IMG/VR virus record: IMGVR_UViG_3300045836_000189
Location: 116,296-136,295 of that record
DNA from: an uncultured virus (IMG/VR IMGVR_UViG_3300045836_000189)
Lineage: Duplodnaviria; Heunggongvirae; Uroviricota; Caudoviricetes
Length of the DNA: 20,000 nt
Reading direction: 5' to 3' (one strand)
Part shown: one piece after another, positions 5,425 to 19,842 of the stretch
How the letters are laid out: each line of letters begins with the position of its first letter
Numbering within the stretch: position 1 is the stretch's first letter
The notes under the pieces: model-generated
Seen by the model: only the letters and a program-made list of their open reading frames with translations
What the model was told of the DNA's origin: nothing
Databases searched by the model: none
Program-made: the position numbers and the translations under genes

Positions 5425-5844
5425 TTATTTGGACAGCTCTTTCACCAGCCTGTCAATGATTTGCTCAGAGGTTTCACCGGCCTCATTCTGGAAATGCTCT
5501 ACAAGAATCCGGTCTTTCAGATCCTCTACGTCTACATTTTTTCCAGCAGCCTGGAAATTCGGAGTATAATATCCTTGTTCATCTCTGCTGTATCCAAATC
5601 CGGTTACCTGAACATCTTTAGTGGTGAATGCTTTTACAAAAGCTGCTTTGGTATCTTGTACTTTTTGAGCGGCAGCCTTAATTACAGCTTTTTCATCATC
5701 CACAGCTTTCTTATAAGCTTTATACTCTTTTGAAGACTGGTAGCTTTTCTTTACAGCTTCCACATTTGCTCTCTGAGCTTCTTCAATTCTGTTTTTTACT
5801 TGGTTAGCTAAGGCTTTAGCTACGGGTACGGTTAACTTTTTCAT
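5425..5844 (-). CDS. Hypothetical helical protein
   Basis: 139-aa K/A-rich ORF; start context TAAAAAAACCAAAATG. Confidence 0.75.
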   Translation of the reverse strand: MKKLTVPVAKALANQVKNRIEEAQRANVEAVKKSYQSSKEYKAYKKAVDDEKAVIKAAAQKVQDTKAAFVKAFTTKDVQVTGFGYSRDEQGYYTPNFQAAGKNVDVEDLKDRILVEHFQNEAGETSEQIIDRLVKELSK

Positions 5845-5878: not shown

Positions 5879-6220
5879 TTATTTCAGCTGTTCAGCTAAT
5901 TGGTCAAGAGCTTTGTCAATTTCCTCTATATAGTTAGTAGCATAAGAGAGGGCCTGAAACCTCTTACGGCAATAGTATCCGGCACCAAGTCCCAGGTTCT
6001 CATCATTGGTGATATTATCCCAATGGACGTATACAATGGTTCCTTTTTTCTTTTTTCCAAATGTATTTTGGTCTACATAGTTCGGACCTATGGCTGTGAT
6101 GGTGCCCTCCGTAACGTTGGCATAATGACCAGTGAAATATCCGGGAGCTTTCCCCCAGTCTGGTCCTTTTGTTACCCGGTCTCCAATACTTGCTTCCGGG
6201 GCATAAACAGGCTTGTTCAT
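5879..6220 (-). CDS. MIB/HERC2-like (SH3-fold) protein with shared C-terminal helix
   Basis: IGDRVTKGPDW...GTIT...VYVHWDN; tail IEEIDKALDQLAEQLK. Confidence 0.7.
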   Translation of the reverse strand: MNKPVYAPEASIGDRVTKGPDWGKAPGYFTGHYANVTEGTITAIGPNYVDQNTFGKKKKGTIVYVHWDNITNDENLGLGAGYYCRKRFQALSYATNYIEEIDKALDQLAEQLK

Positions 6221-6516
6221 GATTTTTGTAGTTTTTCTTCCAGCTTATCAAGGGCTTCTGTGAGTTCATCCAGGGACGGAGGTTCATCAAGGTAATACAG
6301 GTCATAATAACCAGCATGTCCCACTCTGTAATTCCAAATAACCTTGGAGCCTTCCCACTGTACATCTGCCCAAAAGCCTGTACTAATTGATTCGCTCACA
6401 AGGGTGCCTGTTCCTGTACCTCCTCCATGTATATCCTGGTCACCCCATTCCCAGTCTCTACCCCGTTTTACACGAGCTCCTTTCCTGTAGTTCTCAGGAG
6501 TTACCGGTATCTTCAT
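6217..6516 (-). CDS. MIB/HERC2 domain protein with shared C-terminal helix
   Basis: GARVKRGRDWEWGDQDIHGGGTGTGT...WADVQWEG...NYRVGHAGYYDL closely follows the recalled MIB/HERC2 consensus; tail LDELTEALDKLEEKL. Start placed at ATG 6516, after AAGGAG. Confidence 0.85.
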   Translation of the reverse strand: MKIPVTPENYRKGARVKRGRDWEWGDQDIHGGGTGTGTLVSESISTGFWADVQWEGSKVIWNYRVGHAGYYDLYYLDEPPSLDELTEALDKLEEKLQKS

Positions 6517-6811
6517 CACTGCTCCTTTCCAGCTTGGAAGCAAGCCTGTTCAGAGCAGCTTCAATATCCTTAAACTCTACTTCGGGGTAGATCAGAGGAA
6601 TCTTTCCAGACTTTATCTGGTACCCTGGCCATATCCCTTTGGCAAGCTGTGGAAATCCTTTCCATTTTACCTGGATGATTTCTGAGTACTTGTGGATCTC
6701 TACAATCCTGCCCTTTTTTACTCCTTTAAACCGGGAATCGTGAGGTCCCCAGTCCGGACCGGGAGCCACTATGTCTCCAATTTTGGCAGTATTAACGTTA
6801 ACTGGTTTCAT
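6494..6811 (-). CDS. MIB/HERC2-like protein with shared C-terminal helix
   Basis: IGDIVAPGPDW...GRIVEI...IQVKW; tail FKDIEAALNRLASKL. Confidence 0.7.
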   Translation of the reverse strand: MKPVNVNTAKIGDIVAPGPDWGPHDSRFKGVKKGRIVEIHKYSEIIQVKWKGFPQLAKGIWPGYQIKSGKIPLIYPEVEFKDIEAALNRLASKLERSSDEDTGNS

Positions 6812-7112
6812 GATTTATCCTTTCTTGCTTTTCAATGAGTTTCTCCACTTCCTGGAATAAGGTTGTTAAATCCTCTGTAGTTGAATCATAGACTGACAGT
6901 TCGTATTTTCCCGCCGCTCCAATTCGGTAAGAATAGTTGAATCCTCCTGGTTTCCACCTCACATCAGCATACCATCCGGCAATGTCATCACATACTTCGG
7001 TAATAATACCATACTGACTAACACCAACGTGATGATTCTCCGAATGATTCCAATCAGGGCCTTTGCAGACTTTCATGCCTACAAAAGCATTTTCATGCGT
7101 CACCTTTTCCAT
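6798..7112 (-). CDS. MIB/HERC2-like protein
   Basis: VGMKVCKGPDW...GIITEV...ADVRW...YSYRIGAAGKYEL; tail LTTLFQEVEKLIEK. Confidence 0.8.
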   Translation of the reverse strand: MEKVTHENAFVGMKVCKGPDWNHSENHHVGVSQYGIITEVCDDIAGWYADVRWKPGGFNYSYRIGAAGKYELSVYDSTTEDLTTLFQEVEKLIEKQERINHETS

Positions 7113-7714
7113 AGAACTTTACTCATCAGATACAGTGTTTCTATAAATATCCTGGGGATACTCAGCAGGAACTTCTTGATCTTCCTGGGAAGACGTAGCA
7201 GCCAGGCTATCAGGTTACCATGCTTTTTACCCAGCATGATGTCTGCCTGGATCTGGTCCAGTCCATCCATGATCTGTTCAATGGTCTCCTGTTTCTTCTC
7301 CACTGTAGATTCAGATACATCTTCTGCTGGAAGGGTAGCACCTGTGTAAACAGGTTTTGAGAAAGAGGAAGATTTACCATGTGCAGCCAGGAAGTTATCT
7401 TTGTATTCCTGCCATTGATCCACGGTTGGGAATCCTTTTCCAGGAGAAAGTTCCTGTTCATAAACATGCCTTAAATCATGCCGTGAACTGAGTCCTGTTC
7501 TATATTTAGCTGACTTTCCATTATCCCATTCTACTTCACAGTACAAGCCGTTCTTAAACACAATAACAATAGTCCCCATGGTTCCGGGAAGCATCTCATA
7601 TATAGTGAAGGGAAAGTCAAAAGTGGTATCCCTGAACCAATCGGGGCCACCCGCCATTACTCTTAGTCCGACTCTTACTTCATCATAGCGTACAGGATCT
7701 CCTGGTTTTAACAT
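7100..7714 (-). CDS. MIB/HERC2-like protein with C-terminal extension
   Basis: VGLRVMAGGPDW...GTIV...CEVEWDNGKSAKYRTG...HDL; helix IEQIMDGLDQIQADI, then a basic amphipathic tail. Confidence 0.75.
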   Translation of the reverse strand: MLKPGDPVRYDEVRVGLRVMAGGPDWFRDTTFDFPFTIYEMLPGTMGTIVIVFKNGLYCEVEWDNGKSAKYRTGLSSRHDLRHVYEQELSPGKGFPTVDQWQEYKDNFLAAHGKSSSFSKPVYTGATLPAEDVSESTVEKKQETIEQIMDGLDQIQADIMLGKKHGNLIAWLLRLPRKIKKFLLSIPRIFIETLYLMSKVLWKR

Positions 7715-8040
7715 TGGTTTCCTCCTTTCTGCTCTGCCACTTTAAGCAGGAGCAGATCCAGATTAAAATAGATTTGTTCAATAACAGGGAGCTGCTTCAC
7801 CAGATTCCTGGGAAGGTCTCTAATGGATACCTTGAAGTACTTATTCTTCCTGTTATTCTTACAGCCCCAGGCATACTTGATTTCTTCAAACCTGAGTTTT
7901 TTGTTGTGTGTGATCTCTTTAACTGTCAGCACCTGTCCCGGCTTTACCCAGGACTGCTCACAGTCATTTAGTATTTTGATTTTGCAGCCTATAAGGGACT
8001 GGCTGATTTCAGGATGGATAAGATCTTCATAAGTAGCCAT
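7708..8040 (-). CDS. Hypothetical beta-rich protein (paralog of 8043..8351)
   Basis: LIGCKIKILN...GQVLTV...EI...WGCKNN...YFKV; tail IEQIYFNLDLLLLKV. Confidence 0.7.
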   Translation of the reverse strand: MATYEDLIHPEISQSLIGCKIKILNDCEQSWVKPGQVLTVKEITHNKKLRFEEIKYAWGCKNNRKNKYFKVSIRDLPRNLVKQLPVIEQIYFNLDLLLLKVAEQKGGNQC

Positions 8041-8042
8041 AA

Positions 8043-8351
8043 TTAACTCAGTTTATCTTCTAGCCGCTCCAGATGAAGTAGTATATCATCCATCAGCGGT
8101 GAGAGTGCTTTATCAATATGTTTTAACTCATAGATCATCTCCTGACCTTCCAGTACCTGGAATAATTTTCTACCGGAGTTATTGGCACATGACCAGTAAC
8201 GGCCTCCTATTTCCTTGATACCCAGGTTCTTTGACCGGTATCCGGAAACAGTATAGATCTGTCCATTCTTCAGGCGTTCAAACCCATTGTTGTTCAGGAT
8301 CAGGATCTGTTTGCCTATTAACTCCCTGCAGGCATCCGGGAAATAGCTCAT
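8043..8351 (-). CDS. Hypothetical beta-rich protein (paralog of 7708..8040)
   Basis: LIGKQILILN...GQIYTV...EI...WSCANN...LFQV; tail MDDILLHLERLEDKLS. Start likely ATG 8351. Confidence 0.7.
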   Translation of the reverse strand: MSYFPDACRELIGKQILILNNNGFERLKNGQIYTVSGYRSKNLGIKEIGGRYWSCANNSGRKLFQVLEGQEMIYELKHIDKALSPLMDDILLHLERLEDKLS

Positions 8352-8461
8352 GATGATTGAAATTGAATACAGTACTAAATGGTAAAGCATGACAGACCAA
8401 ACCTGGAGAGGAGTGGATATTACTACCCCTGTGTCCCCATTAAGCCTGCCATGCTTATGTC

Positions 8462-8821
8462 CTACTTCTTTGCTTTCAAAGCTTCCAGTTTCCGGTTCAG
8501 CAGATACTTGGCCACTGGTTCATAAGCACGTAAAAGCACATAGTGAACCATCCCCTGGATAGCACACATTATAAAGGCCGTAAACAAGAAGTTGTACAGC
8601 CAGTAGTGTGATACTACCACCACAGGGAGATCGCTCGTCAGAAGCAGGATAAACACGCACCAGTGGCCAAAGCACCAGGGACAGTGAATCAGGTCTTCTA
8701 TCTTTTGATTGAGAGGGCTGATCCACTCCCGGAATGGTTTGAAGATACCGGTGGATGTGACGGTGAAGGAGATGGAAGCACAGCATAGTGCTCCCATGAC
8801 CAGGAATAGGAACTCTTTCAT
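8462..8821 (-). CDS. DUF1360-like membrane protein
   Basis: IFKPFREW...LIHCPWCFGHW motif with flanking transmembrane segments. Confidence 0.65.
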   Translation of the reverse strand: MKEFLFLVMGALCCASISFTVTSTGIFKPFREWISPLNQKIEDLIHCPWCFGHWCVFILLLTSDLPVVVVSHYWLYNFLFTAFIMCAIQGMVHYVLLRAYEPVAKYLLNRKLEALKAKK

Positions 8822-8822
8822 G

Positions 8823-9125
8823 TTATATTACCTCATCAGCTTCTTCAAGGCCATCTTCCGAAATCCGGTCCCCATCCTGCAGATCTGAGTCTTCAGGGAC
8901 TTCCCTTAAGATCTCAAAGTCTGATCCTCCACATCCACAACCTGAGTACACCACCAGCCTTACTTTGCGGGTCTTTGGCATATAAGCTCCCAGAATGTCC
9001 TCTATACTCATCTCTTCTGCCTTTTTGATCACAGGAGCTTTTTCCTGTTCCTTGTGGAACTCTTCTCTCAGTTGGGCCAGGTTGTCCTTCTCCTGACCGG
9101 CTTTACGGTTTTTAAGCTTTTGCAT
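8823..9125 (-). CDS. Hypothetical protein with GCGCG motif
   Basis: Overlaps the ATPase stop; YSGCGCGGS and an acidic C-terminus. Confidence 0.7.
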   Translation of the reverse strand: MQKLKNRKAGQEKDNLAQLREEFHKEQEKAPVIKKAEEMSIEDILGAYMPKTRKVRLVVYSGCGCGGSDFEILREVPEDSDLQDGDRISEDGLEEADEVI

Positions 9126-10281
9126 AACTTGAGTTTATTAATTTGATTGATTCTTCCAGGTCTGCTGCAGTAACCCCCTTAGGAGTTTTCTTGGTAGTAG
9201 TCATCCTGGTCAGGGCTTTGCGTACAGCACCTTTGGCAATGGCTTCCACCATAGCTCCCGATACTTTACTCTTACAGGGAAGACTAAATAACATATCAGC
9301 TCCTTTGATGGCCAGGTCTTCTACCTTGTCATGGCATTTTACCTTCTTAAGGTGGATCTCAAAGATCTCCTTGGTATCCGGGTGATCCGGACGGTTGATG
9401 CCAATCTTCAAGTCTATCCTTCCTTCCCGGACAATAGCCTCATCCAGTGCATTAGGGAGATTAGTGGCCAGGATGAAGATGGGATTGTGCTCTTTTTCCA
9501 GTCCGTCCATTTCTGAAAGGAACGTAGGCACAATGGTCATCTCCACGTCTGATGATTTACCGCTGCCTCTCTGACGGAGCAGGGCTTCTGCTTCATCCAT
9601 GAATACAACTGCACGCTGGCCGGTCTTTTTACAGTACTGGCGGGTAGCATGGAACATGTGGGCTACTTTCTGCTCTGCCTCACCTACGAACTTACTCAGC
9701 ATCTCAGCTCCTTTTATGTAAACAAAGGCTGCGGGATCCACTTTTGTGGAACCAAGGATCGTAGAGGCAATGGCTTTACCGATCAGGGTCTTGCCACATC
9801 CCGGAGGACCGTAGAGTACCAGGCCGGGAAAATCTCCCAGACCCATCTCTTTTGCCAGCTCCTGGTGTTTCAGGGGCAGCTCAATGGCTTCACGGATGTT
9901 GCTTAACTGTGATTTAAGTCCACCGATCTCATTCCAGTCAATCAGGTTGAAATGAGGAATGTCAGTTACTTTCTCCAGCTCTTTGGGAACCACGGCAATG
10001 ATGGCGGATCCAATACAGATCACCTCTGTTCCCGGCTCAAGAATTTGGGTAATAGGGTCTCCGAAGATAGGCTCTTCATTCAGGAACATAACCGTTCCGT
10101 TTACCCGGTAATACTGGGCATTGTTATGAACAAAAGGGCCAGCTACAATGGTGTGTACTTCTTTTTTCTCACCAAGGAACTGCTCCAGCATCTGCTCATA
10201 TTTATCAACCTGCTCTCTGAGGGCTGATAATTCGTCTGTTGGGGCTACGGGAGCCTCAAATGTTGCTTCTTCCTGAAACAT
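9112..10281 (-). CDS. ARC/Mpa-like proteasome-type AAA+ ATPase
   Basis: WNEIGGL; Walker A GPPGCGKT; pore loop KGAEMLSKFVGE; Walker B VVFMDE; RGSGKSSDVEMTIVPTFLSEMDG; SRH ATN...LDEAIVREGRID; SGAMV; N-terminal coiled coil LSALREQVDK. Start placed at ATG 10281. Confidence 0.85.
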   Translation of the reverse strand: MFQEEATFEAPVAPTDELSALREQVDKYEQMLEQFLGEKKEVHTIVAGPFVHNNAQYYRVNGTVMFLNEEPIFGDPITQILEPGTEVICIGSAIIAVVPKELEKVTDIPHFNLIDWNEIGGLKSQLSNIREAIELPLKHQELAKEMGLGDFPGLVLYGPPGCGKTLIGKAIASTILGSTKVDPAAFVYIKGAEMLSKFVGEAEQKVAHMFHATRQYCKKTGQRAVVFMDEAEALLRQRGSGKSSDVEMTIVPTFLSEMDGLEKEHNPIFILATNLPNALDEAIVREGRIDLKIGINRPDHPDTKEIFEIHLKKVKCHDKVEDLAIKGADMLFSLPCKSKVSGAMVEAIAKGAVRKALTRMTTTKKTPKGVTAADLEESIKLINSSYAKA

Positions 10282-16514: not shown

Positions 16515-16874
16515 TTATTCAGCTGAGTTGAATTCAGCAAGAATACCGGAGAAGTAAGCTATTGAGTCCTCTGTGGCTGCTTTTACAGCAATAGCATTCT
16601 CCAGGTTTTCCTGGGCACGCACAATACCTTGTGCATAGGCTTTATTATCACTAAACAAGTTAGTGGGATACTTAGCTGCAGCCAATGCTTCTTCAGCTGA
16701 TTCCACTGCGTTCTCGTCATCAACGAGTTTAGCTTTCAGAGCGGCTACCTGACCTTCCAGGGCAGATACAGCTTTACGGGCAATTTTACCGGCTAATGCT
16801 TCAGTGTCATCACCTTTTAAACGGTTAAGAATTCCAGCTACTAAAATGGTCTTTTTTGATGTGTTTTTTGACAT
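16515..16874 (-). CDS. Hypothetical coiled-coil protein
   Basis: Ala-rich helical 119-aa ORF; start context AAAAACCATG. Confidence 0.75.
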   Translation of the reverse strand: MSKNTSKKTILVAGILNRLKGDDTEALAGKIARKAVSALEGQVAALKAKLVDDENAVESAEEALAAAKYPTNLFSDNKAYAQGIVRAQENLENAIAVKAATEDSIAYFSGILAEFNSAE

Positions 16875-16879
16875 GGTTT

Positions 16880-18472
16880 TTACGGATTAAGGATTATTAT
16901 TTTTGTTACTTGTTTCTTTTTGGTTAGTACTACGGGACTTTGATGACTAACCTGTGGCTGTCCCAGGGCTGCAGGTGTTTTTACGGGTAATGTGACAGGA
17001 GTGTTATCGGGCTGAGGGGATGGATTAACAGGGTAACAGAATGAATCCAATATTCTGATGTTTGCTGATTCATATATACCCAGATCTGCAGGCGTGATTT
17101 CTACATTGGTGTTTTCATCAAACCATTTTCTGTCATTGCCTAAGAAGGATAGAGTCAGGTTGTCGGAAAATAGTGCATAAGAATCAGTATACATAACCCA
17201 TCTTTCATTTAATCCCCACTTATGACCTAATTCAAACAACCTTTCCTGCACTCTTCTGGAGAGATCAGGGTTATTTCCTATCCAGATCTTGAACTTTTGT
17301 GGTAGGTTAATAACCGGCTTCTCTTCCTGGATGATTTCAGCCCATTTGTTATTATAGGCATAGTAAACACAGAGTTCATCTCCCTCAACAGGAACGAAAA
17401 CATCCTCATATCCATACCGTGGATCCCCTGCTACTGTTCCAGATTTCCCGGATAATGCACTCTTAATTTTAGTACCAACCGGATACCTACTAAGGGCTTC
17501 TGCTAAGAGATCGTCTTCTGGAGTTGATTTAGATTCCTGTGATTTCCAGAACTCTTCAAATCCTTCTGCTGCTATACGGACATCTGCTGAAGTACGATCA
17601 AGTTTGATTGCAGGTTTTCCTTTTACATAATCAATGTTAAGAATTCTCCGATCTCTATAAAAACCAGACATTGCAGTCCATTTATCAAATACACCGTTAG
17701 TGAAGTTTCCTTCTTTACTACTCCAATCATTGATTACTTTCTCAGGAACAGTTTTACCAACCAGGTGTTGATATTTGCTGAGATCTGGTTGCTGCTTAGG
17801 ATTCCACTCATCATAGAGGATTTGAGCTTTGTCAGTAGTATTACCCCCTCTAAGCTTTTCATACACTTCATCAAAAGGACAGGTAGAAGATGCCCCAATA
17901 TAGTTCCTAAGAGCACTTAAACTCAGGTTCATGGCCTTGGTTTCCCTAAGCCATTTATCCAGTATTGACTCTTGAGGTATATCATACTCTTCAAACTCTG
18001 ATTCCAGCATAGAGTACGCACCACCAGTTCTTGATCTTACTGACATTTTATAGCAACCTCTTTCAGGAACGTAATCGTAGTACTCTAAGATTTTGCCTTT
18101 ATACCCCCCTTGCTCATTACCTCCATGATAATAAGAAATAGTTATACCATTTGCATGAGTACAGTCTTCTCTGTTCTTATAAGTGACCGTATCACCTACT
18201 TTAAATCTTGGCTCCGGTTTTGTTTTTTTGGGTTCTGTAATAATTTCAGCCCAATTATTGTAAGTATAGATCCGGGCTTTTTTCCTACCTGCAGGATTGG
18301 GAGCTACGTCAATGTACATATGAACACTTGTCCACGCATCTGGTGCTTCCATCAGGCTTTTAAACGGATCATCTGCCACTATAAATTCTTTACCTTTTAC
18401 AAGGTCTTTGAAACGGGCACCAGGGACAAATCCTTTTTCTAAGGCCCTGGTCATAAATTCACTATTTCTCAT
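16880..18472 (-). CDS. Mosaic multi-domain phage protein with internal repeat
   Basis: Two copies of a module ending in W-A-E-I-I (RALEKGFVPGARF...YNNWAEII; EALSRYPVGTKI...YNNKWAEII), an FKVGDTV barrel start and a Pro-rich tail; AAGGAGG upstream. Confidence 0.8.
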   Translation of the reverse strand: MRNSEFMTRALEKGFVPGARFKDLVKGKEFIVADDPFKSLMEAPDAWTSVHMYIDVAPNPAGRKKARIYTYNNWAEIITEPKKTKPEPRFKVGDTVTYKNREDCTHANGITISYYHGGNEQGGYKGKILEYYDYVPERGCYKMSVRSRTGGAYSMLESEFEEYDIPQESILDKWLRETKAMNLSLSALRNYIGASSTCPFDEVYEKLRGGNTTDKAQILYDEWNPKQQPDLSKYQHLVGKTVPEKVINDWSSKEGNFTNGVFDKWTAMSGFYRDRRILNIDYVKGKPAIKLDRTSADVRIAAEGFEEFWKSQESKSTPEDDLLAEALSRYPVGTKIKSALSGKSGTVAGDPRYGYEDVFVPVEGDELCVYYAYNNKWAEIIQEEKPVINLPQKFKIWIGNNPDLSRRVQERLFELGHKWGLNERWVMYTDSYALFSDNLTLSFLGNDRKWFDENTNVEITPADLGIYESANIRILDSFCYPVNPSPQPDNTPVTLPVKTPAALGQPQVSHQSPVVLTKKKQVTKIIILNP

Positions 18473-19157: not shown

Positions 19158-19499
19158 TCATGATTGTTTCAGTTTTTCAGAGAGCTGGTCTAATGCAGTC
19201 TCTATTTTGTCAATGATATGTGGATTTGTTAGTTGACTGATGTTAACGGGTCTGTTTACTTGGTCATAAGCCTCTATTTCATAATCTTCAGCATATCTCC
19301 AGGAATAGGATTTCCCTGCAGCACGGTAATTCAAAGGATCAAAACAGATTCTTGTGTTACCGTTTGTGTCATCTCCTCTTAAGTCTATTTCTGGCCGTAA
19401 CCAGTCACAGTCCTCCCGTTGCTTAAAGACAAAGTCTTTTTTCCAGGCATCAAACTCTGTGTTTTCCAATAAGACAATATAATCCCCCTGCTTAAACAT
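19158..19499 (-). CDS. Hypothetical protein with shared C-terminal helix
   Basis: FKQGDYIV...WRYAEDYEIEAY...PVNIS; tail IDKIETALDQLSEKLKQS. Confidence 0.8.
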   Translation of the reverse strand: MFKQGDYIVLLENTEFDAWKKDFVFKQREDCDWLRPEIDLRGDDTNGNTRICFDPLNYRAAGKSYSWRYAEDYEIEAYDQVNRPVNISQLTNPHIIDKIETALDQLSEKLKQS

Positions 19500-19842
19500 C
19501 TTTCCCCCCTTTTAACTTATCTTCCAGTTGATTTAAGGCTTCATCCAGTTTTTGTATGGTTGGTGTATAGTCTACCTCAGAGATGTTAATAGGACCCTCA
19601 GCTTTATTGTAAGCATCTATCTCCTCCTGGGTAGCAGGACGCAGATCTACTAAAGAAAAATTCATACCCCACCTATTATGTTCCAGGATGGCAACCTTAC
19701 GGTGAACATTTCCAGATGGTAGAGCATCATCTTCTTCATTATAAGTGCACATTGCCACTGTACCTATGAGAGATTGATATTTAAAATATCTTGAGGTACA
19801 TGATTTTATTACTACAATATCTTGATTTCTCACTGTTTCCAT
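19492..19842 (-). CDS. Hypothetical protein with shared C-terminal helix
   Basis: NQDIVVI...LRPATQEEIDAY...PINIS; tail IQKLDEALNQLEDKLK. Confidence 0.8.
   Translation of the reverse strand: METVRNQDIVVIKSCTSRYFKYQSLIGTVAMCTYNEEDDALPSGNVHRKVAILEHNRWGMNFSLVDLRPATQEEIDAYNKAEGPINISEVDYTPTIQKLDEALNQLEDKLKGGKDV

Follow-up and report, generated by a model that had tools for sequence, protein, structure and literature searches.

A tandem array of five MIB/HERC2-like genes was found in a phage genome, where it forms part of a larger family of small proteins that carry mostly unrelated heads on one shared C-terminal helix (the tail helix; genes that encode it are called tailed genes below). The existence of the array and its place inside this family are well supported; the mechanism by which the proteins would act is one that we infer. 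MIB/HERC2 is regarded as a ligase domain of eukaryotes. The domain table of PMC2394772 marks MIB_HERC2 as Euk, and the passages on MIB-HERC2 in PMC3673628 concern eukaryotes.

The window, by which we mean the whole stretch of DNA analyzed, is the final 20 kb of a single virus record of 136,295 nt (G000). Outside the window, the record contains genes for a major head protein, a portal, and a terminase, which were recognized by PHROG matches, as well as an ORF of 4707 aa. Its capsid protein is 22-28% identical to the capsid proteins of cr10_1, csAssE-Sib, Cellulophaga phi17:2, phi4:1, and Lbo-JY46. We read the genome, from its sequence, as that of a crAss-like phage, and its host group is probably the Bacteroidota. 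The capsid protein has many close relatives (67-100% identity) in IMG/VR, and MIB/HERC2 was detected in none of 29 capsid-relative records, eight of which are at least 90% complete.

The five array proteins and their fold

All five overlapping ORFs that a preliminary description of this DNA had placed at 5879-7714 are present on the minus strand, and adjacent ORFs overlap by 4-23 nt. Read along that strand, the array begins with a 204-aa protein (7100-7714) that consists of a MIB/HERC2-like barrel (Pfam 21.1 bits), a linker, a weak tail-like helix (residues 144-160), and a basic hydrophobic end. It is followed by a 104-aa protein with a MIB/HERC2 domain and a weak tail helix (6798-7112, Pfam 41.9 bits), a 105-aa protein with a diverged MIB/HERC2-like barrel and a tail helix (6494-6811), a 99-aa protein with a MIB/HERC2 domain and a tail helix (6217-6516, Pfam 51.2 bits), and a 113-aa protein with a MIB/HERC2-like barrel and the shared tail helix (5879-6220, Pfam 11.4 bits). 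The start of the 99-aa protein was set at an ATG that follows a GGAG, and the longest possible frame would begin at 6543.

A Pfam search, which had been proposed as a check of the domain call (MIB_HERC2, PF06701; curated cut-off 33.5 bits), bore it out for two of the five copies, namely 6217 and 6798, while the 7100 and 5879 copies fell under the cut-off and the 6494 copy gave no match. A profile trained without these three weak copies recovered all of them, with E values of 5e-8 (6494), 1e-5 (5879), and 4e-5 (7100); its training set did include the allele that a sister phage (G001) carries at the 5879 position. When a profile of all five copies was compared to PDB sequences, the matches were significant only for MIB1 (E 1e-20) and HECTD1 (E 1e-11). 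None of the five proteins belongs to a PHROGs family, and none has a RING or HECT match in Pfam. The motif G-x-x-V-x-x-G-[PR]-D-W, described as common to all copies, occurs exactly in four of them and with one extra residue in the 7100 ORF; a G, V-x-W, and a Y are invariant in the alignment of all five. Pairwise identity among the five barrels is 24-35%, which, together with the allele replacement in the sister phage, bears out the earlier suggestion of a diversified set. The suggestion that the modules stand alone had to be abandoned: four copies carry the C-terminal helix, the 204-aa copy is extended further, and the array is a subset of a genome-wide helix-sharing family.

Among the array proteins, only the 99-aa protein was folded, using an alignment that included MIB homologs. 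In the resulting model (pLDDT 87), a beta-barrel is followed by a helix that stands apart from it at the C-terminus (residues 82-98). The comparison to MIB1 by Foldseek that had been called for returned four matches at E<0.001 (1e-4 to 8e-4), and these are 3dkm, 2dk3, 4xi6, and 4xi7, all of HECTD1 or MIB1. VIA ranked MIB1 first (Z 9.6, rmsd 2.4, 68 aligned), followed by HECTD1 (Z 8.3) and KOW (Z 7.3), and the first three rows of an ESM Atlas structure search were MIB/HERC2 clusters. An earlier model, for which the alignment was limited to the five phage copies, likewise put MIB1 first in VIA (Z 7.3, tied within 1); with it, Foldseek found nothing under E 0.001 in the PDB or BFVD, and weak YorP and HspQ rows were disregarded. 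Taken together, the Pfam, PDB profile, Foldseek, and VIA results favor MIB/HERC2, the generic KOW/SH3 reading of the 6217 protein was rejected, and the original domain assignment is upheld.

The phage copies resemble the MIB/HERC2 domains (PF06701) of MIB1, HECTD1, and HERC2 in sequence motif, SH3-like fold, and best structure matches. In contrast to those proteins, each phage copy is one domain in a protein of ~100 aa, without ZZ, RING, HECT, or ankyrin parts. The broad barrel is also common to small phage proteins of SH3 fold such as YorP (Z 6.0), DUF4314 (weak matches), and phage Tudor; however, the array has the MIB-specific G[PR]DW motif, and the shared tail is outside those families as far as tested. 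The MZM region of MIB1 binds a peptide, as described in PMC11887331, and by analogy with this eukaryotic domain the array heads may bind protein targets.

A tail helix with exchangeable heads

At the C-terminus of four array copies is an amphipathic helix with the pattern xIxxIxxALDxLxxKL, and this helix is common to ~18 small ORFs across the 136-kb genome, with heads that are mostly unrelated. The tail profile was seeded on the four array copies and iterated, which placed 17 of 849 ORFs over the threshold. Fifteen of these encode 92-116 aa on the minus strand with the motif no more than 12 residues from the end, and the other two are unrelated. The family of 18 is made up of these 15 profile members and three weaker neighbors that were added by eye. 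In a leave-one-out analysis, 15 of the 18 own-genome members scored at least 10 bits, a score that was reached by 0.12% of 3459 control ORFs. Within the array, the tail scores are 30.7 bits (6217), 25.8 bits (5879, leave-one-out), 12.4 bits (6494), and only 3.9 bits (6798, leave-one-out), and the internal helix of the 7100 ORF scored 3.0 and -2.7 bits.

The helix is ~17 residues long, its positions 2, 5, 9, 12, and 16 are 83-100% hydrophobic, and its polar pattern (D at 10, K/R at 15) is kept in two lineages. Its first half is acidic and its end is basic. Between 0 and 12 unrelated residues follow the helix, and in most members the motif is at or near the C-terminus. The heads include one WGR domain, many begin like KOW/SH3 barrels by eye, and nearly all are without a Pfam match. 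Five further tailed genes of the window, each on the minus strand, were located outside the array. These are the WGR gene at 760-1062 (Pfam WGR 29.7 bits; tail 12.1 bits), whose counterpart in a distant relative (G037) is also tailed, and four genes with non-MIB heads at 7708-8040 (weak tail helix, 5.1 bits in leave-one-out; no Pfam match), 8043-8390 (tail 11.2 bits), 19158-19499 (tail 28.5 bits), and 19492-19842 (tail 30.8 bits; the sister allele is 57% identical). An additional MIB protein with the tail (13.6 bits) is P0273, and MIB/HERC2 genes without this tail are present in other phages (G002, P0137). Eight near-complete capsid relatives, one partial one, and G002 gave 0-1 short C-terminal tail matches each.

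The sister phage aligns to 92% of the genome, for the most part with 95-99% identity, and three of the array genes are 94-99% identical in it. A block from ~6440 to 5420 is replaced, leaving the last two copies with alleles that are 59% (6217) and 35% (5879) identical. A 139-aa ORF at 5425-5844 is missing from the sister, a similar-looking ORF being found at L166:9409-9804, and one more tailed gene is inserted in the sister just upstream of the 8043-8390 ORF. The sister's arrangement was also found in a sister-like 136-kb contig (runs X3 and X4), which may be the same genome as the sister. In the swapped block of this contig, matches remain only at 5881-5914 and 6232-6276, which are the tail-coding ends, showing that heads were exchanged while the tail DNA was retained. 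Of the small genes that have a counterpart in the sister, four of the 18 tailed ones and one of the 41 others are below 80% identity (p 0.027), a difference that was gone when eight absent genes were counted as variable (4 of 18 and 9 of 49, p 0.74). Elsewhere in the record, at C1:58658-74500, the structural-arm genes for the 4707-aa protein and a 1714-aa protein have 64-77% DNA identity to the sister with flanks at 97-99%, which marks a large exchanged block.

The distant relative, a genome of 134,893 nt with a capsid protein 82% identical to that of our record, was found via its ATPase. It served as an out-of-sample test of the tail profile, which was trained only on the record and its sister. 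In the 21 kb around the ATPase, all 15 tail-profile matches were short and C-terminal. Genome-wide, 18 of 414 ORFs scored at least 10 bits, again all short and C-terminal, and 24 were counted at a relaxed threshold. Fifteen tailed ORFs are within 10 kb of the ARC-like ATPase, tailed genes lie both on either side of the ATPase module and within it, and one tailed ORF has a MIB/HERC2 head above the Pfam cut-off. Both the shared helix and its linkage to the ATPase therefore recur in a second lineage.

The neighboring ATPase and the proposed mechanism

The ATPase gene of the window (9112-10281, minus strand) is 1.4 kb upstream of the array and encodes a 389-aa ARC/Mpa-like AAA+ protein, a candidate docking partner for the tail. 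Its best NCBIfam model is pup_AAA (TIGR03689) at 231 bits, below the equivalog cut-off of 504.75, and its AAA part is 48% identical to the AAA domain of a Pup-linked ARC. By eye, the family alignment shows an N-terminal heptad helix and then a beta-rich stretch, and an N-terminal profile misses the Pup-linked ARC proteins. The likely architecture is an N-terminal coiled coil and a small beta domain followed by one AAA module. Proteins of this family are 360-420 aa long, several are encoded on contigs of 97-142 kb, and in two loci (L195 and L196) the N-terminal part is a separate ORF. The ATPase is followed on the minus strand by a gene for a small CGCGG-motif protein (8823-9125, no Pfam match), which immediately follows the ATPase gene in 11 further distinct loci, and by a gene for a DUF1360-like hydrophobic protein (8462-8821; Pfam E 0.004, under the cut-off), homologs of which are behind the ATPase elsewhere. 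The three-gene module also occurs at no fewer than 11 further distinct loci, which range from crAss-like genomes to a 429-kb record, and 10 distinct loci with the module have no tailed genes nearby. A low-confidence model of the CGCGG protein gave weak rows of ubiquitin-like fold, which we note as a lead only.

All tailed genomes have the ATPase (three of three, from two related lineages), whereas most ATPase carriers are without tails. A single short terminal tail match was found in 2 of 44 other viral and 3 of 80 metagenome ATPase loci. No tail was found in 21 other whole viral records that carry ARC-like ATPases, which implies that tails are not needed for the ATPase to function. The ARC-like ATPase is not the only protein with its presence pattern: two MoxR-like ATPases, a vWA-like protein (assigned by eye and from gene position), and two other ATPases are likewise common to the tailed lineages and absent from nine comparison genomes, and co-occurrence is therefore no specific pointer to the ARC-like ATPase. 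All 18 tailed genes are within 3.4 kb of one of five ATPases; since these ATPases are spread through the same genome arm, nearness was not counted as evidence. The MoxR-like ATPases are encoded at C1:112760-115223 and 93338-96691 of the record, directly behind tailed-gene clusters, one of them beside the vWA-like gene, and both are present in the distant relative.

The closest comparison for the ATPase is the Pup-Mpa/ARC system of Actinobacteria, for which PMC8755798 describes Pup binding the N-terminal coiled coils of Mpa as a helix and GQYL docking the proteasome. The phage has a related AAA module with a predicted N-terminal coiled coil, and a short acidic amphipathic helix that is in register with that of Pup. 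Against a pairing of the two in the phage, the coiled coil of the phage ATPase is acidic (net -1 to -6), as is the first half of the tail. Unlike Pup, the phage helix is gene-fused and not ligated, and the phage ATPase is ~390 aa in length as compared to 560-630 aa for Mpa/ARC. The GQYL end is absent from the phage ATPase, and 17 family members end otherwise. No 20S subunit (PF00227) was found in the record, and the Pup ligase PafA was found in none of the three tail-bearing genomes (G000, G001, and G037), with a Corynebacterium positive control detected. One real Pup matched the tail profile at 10.5 bits, in register with the tail. Across 29 Pup homologs, however, the median was 1 bit (~99th percentile of controls) and one of the 29 reached 10 bits, so Pup ranks far below the family members.

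The anatomy of the family fits an adaptor library, in which variable heads are carried on one helix that docks some common partner, because the heads differ and are exchanged and the tail stays. We give this reading about an even chance of being correct. The small tailed proteins would be interchangeable adaptors, their heads would bind different host proteins, and the shared helix would dock all of them on one common partner. The likeliest partner is the coiled coil of the ARC-like ATPase, a suggestion that we make tentatively on the grounds of the Pup analogy and of the linkage found in both lineages. Against this partner speak the ten loci that have the ATPase module but no tailed genes nearby, the weak likeness of the tail to Pup, and the lack of proteasome and Pup ligase genes. 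If the ATPase is the partner, the helix would associate with its coiled coil in the way that Pup does with that of Mpa, and targets, e.g., defence or regulatory proteins, would be delivered to the pore for unfolding. A tagging enzyme would be unnecessary, and the phage would manage without a proteasome of its own. The complete form of this proposal, a targeted-unfolding toolkit whose ~twenty interchangeable receptors, several of them based on the fold with which eukaryotic ubiquitin ligases bind substrates, plug a fused Pup-like helix into the phage proteasome-type ATPase and dismantle chosen host proteins with neither tagging enzyme nor proteasome, is speculative, and we consider it rather doubtful as a whole. 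The substrate receptors of cullin-RING ligases (F-box, SOCS/BC-box) likewise combine many variable binding domains with one short shared docking motif. The likeness is in the variable heads and the common docking motif, and homology is not claimed. Redirection of an AAA+ machine by a phage is also described for SPO1 Gp53, an adaptor-like protein for host ClpCP (PMC6873191), but Gp53 is a single protein on a host ATPase, whereas here ~18-24 helix-sharing proteins accompany phage-encoded ATPases. In the literature found on phage proteasome ATPases and adaptors, Gp53 was the only relevant precedent.

Several other readings of the tail were considered. The tail could be a self-association zipper that forms homo- or hetero-oligomers and displays a multivalent mixture of heads with no enzyme involved. 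Antiparallel self-pairing would suit a heptad-like amphipathic pattern that starts acidic and ends basic, the ATPase is common without tails, and a weak, non-significant profile match to the hnRNP C zipper was obtained (E 0.63). However, a specific polar pattern that is kept in two lineages on so short a helix goes beyond what a generic zipper needs, and the tailed genes that flank and interrupt the ATPase module of the distant relative also speak against it. We regard the zipper as unlikely. A lower probability is given to a tail that docks on a host machine such as an AAA+ protease, or is a degron for it, which would make the proteins adaptors of host proteolysis or short-lived proteins. The lack of a proteasome-type peptidase in the phage, the terminal or near-terminal position of the motif in most members, and the precedent of Gp53 as an adaptor-like protein for host ClpC (PMC6873191) are in its favor. 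The unrelated residues behind the helix are unlike a strict end-degron, and the eight close capsid relatives, whose hosts may differ, are without tails.

The near-identity of the tail-coding DNA where heads were swapped could also indicate that the tail is mainly a DNA feature, i.e., a gene end that was spread by recombination and gives crossovers a fixed point when cassettes are exchanged, while its helix has little function. Yet conservation across members and lineages tracks the helical period of the protein and not a block of bases, and the tail persists on unrelated heads such as WGR, which leaves this explanation improbable. The original picture of five free-standing modules that act alone, e.g., by blocking host defence proteins, can draw on the untailed MIB/HERC2 genes of other phages (G002, P0137), but four of the five copies share their tail with at least 13 other genes, and we now consider it very improbable. 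Should the tail dock on the phage ATPase, as in the preferred version of the adaptor library, the result would be a compact, reprogrammable protein-remodeling system and a new counter-defence strategy. Should it only oligomerize, the family would still be an unusual modular binder library. The ~twenty small genes with one tail also provide a handle on anonymous phage ORFans.

MIB/HERC2 domains in other viruses

A pattern scan identified 13 viral loci with MIB/HERC2, five of which encode one identical protein. L172, which is 60 kb of a probable jumbo phage, has five or six tandem MIB/HERC2 copies that share an N-terminal helix. Some 2.4 kb ahead of this array are a JAB-like gene (below cut-off), a gene for ThiF (47.7 bits), and a small ORF that appears ubiquitin-like by eye and has no Pfam match. 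The region L172:2270-8527 (G032) is a candidate for a phage ubiquitin-like system with substrate receptors. In L166, two MIB/HERC2 copies and a third barrel share another C-terminal region, and in L164, L170, and L174 the domain is inside long proteins. A de novo search for shared ends in 27 loci gave clear results only in the window, L193, L172, and L166; shared-end clusters in L205 and L209 were rejected as shadow frames of repeats. The arrays in other phages are independent and have other shared helices, so that a variable barrel has been combined with a lineage-specific helix on more than one occasion.

The phylogeny that had been recommended was carried out as a quick tree of 169 domains and 64 columns, in which 4 of 165 branches were starred, and it shows neither a direction of transfer nor that the five copies share one origin. 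When cultured phages were searched with the 99-aa protein by tblastn, there was no match at E 0.1, and a scan of prokaryote genomes that reaches close relatives only found no close relative of an array protein. The best 150 of 2108 matches in a search of representative proteins were mostly multi-copy proteins, listed without taxonomy. We found no report of phage MIB/HERC2 in the published literature, where the supplementary tables of comparative-genomics papers could list it. The occurrence of the domain in several unrelated phages, repeatedly in tandem and with a lineage-specific helix, raises the questions of where MIB/HERC2 arose and what role it had before ubiquitin ligases.

A few additional observations were made on related proteins. 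In a giant-virus assembly (L165:1587-3509), MIB/HERC2 is part of a 640-aa protein whose C-terminal part includes a hydrophobic segment. At 1064-1552 of the window, a macrodomain-like protein with a weak DarG match (E 3e-5) adjoins the WGR protein, a possible tie to ADP-ribose defence. A 530-aa protein at 16515-18472 has several small barrels by eye and is only 52% identical in the sister phage. It adjoins a conserved 119-aa coiled-coil gene, and similar pairs are present in L170 and L174, where long neighbors of the barrel/coiled-coil pair contain MIB/HERC2.
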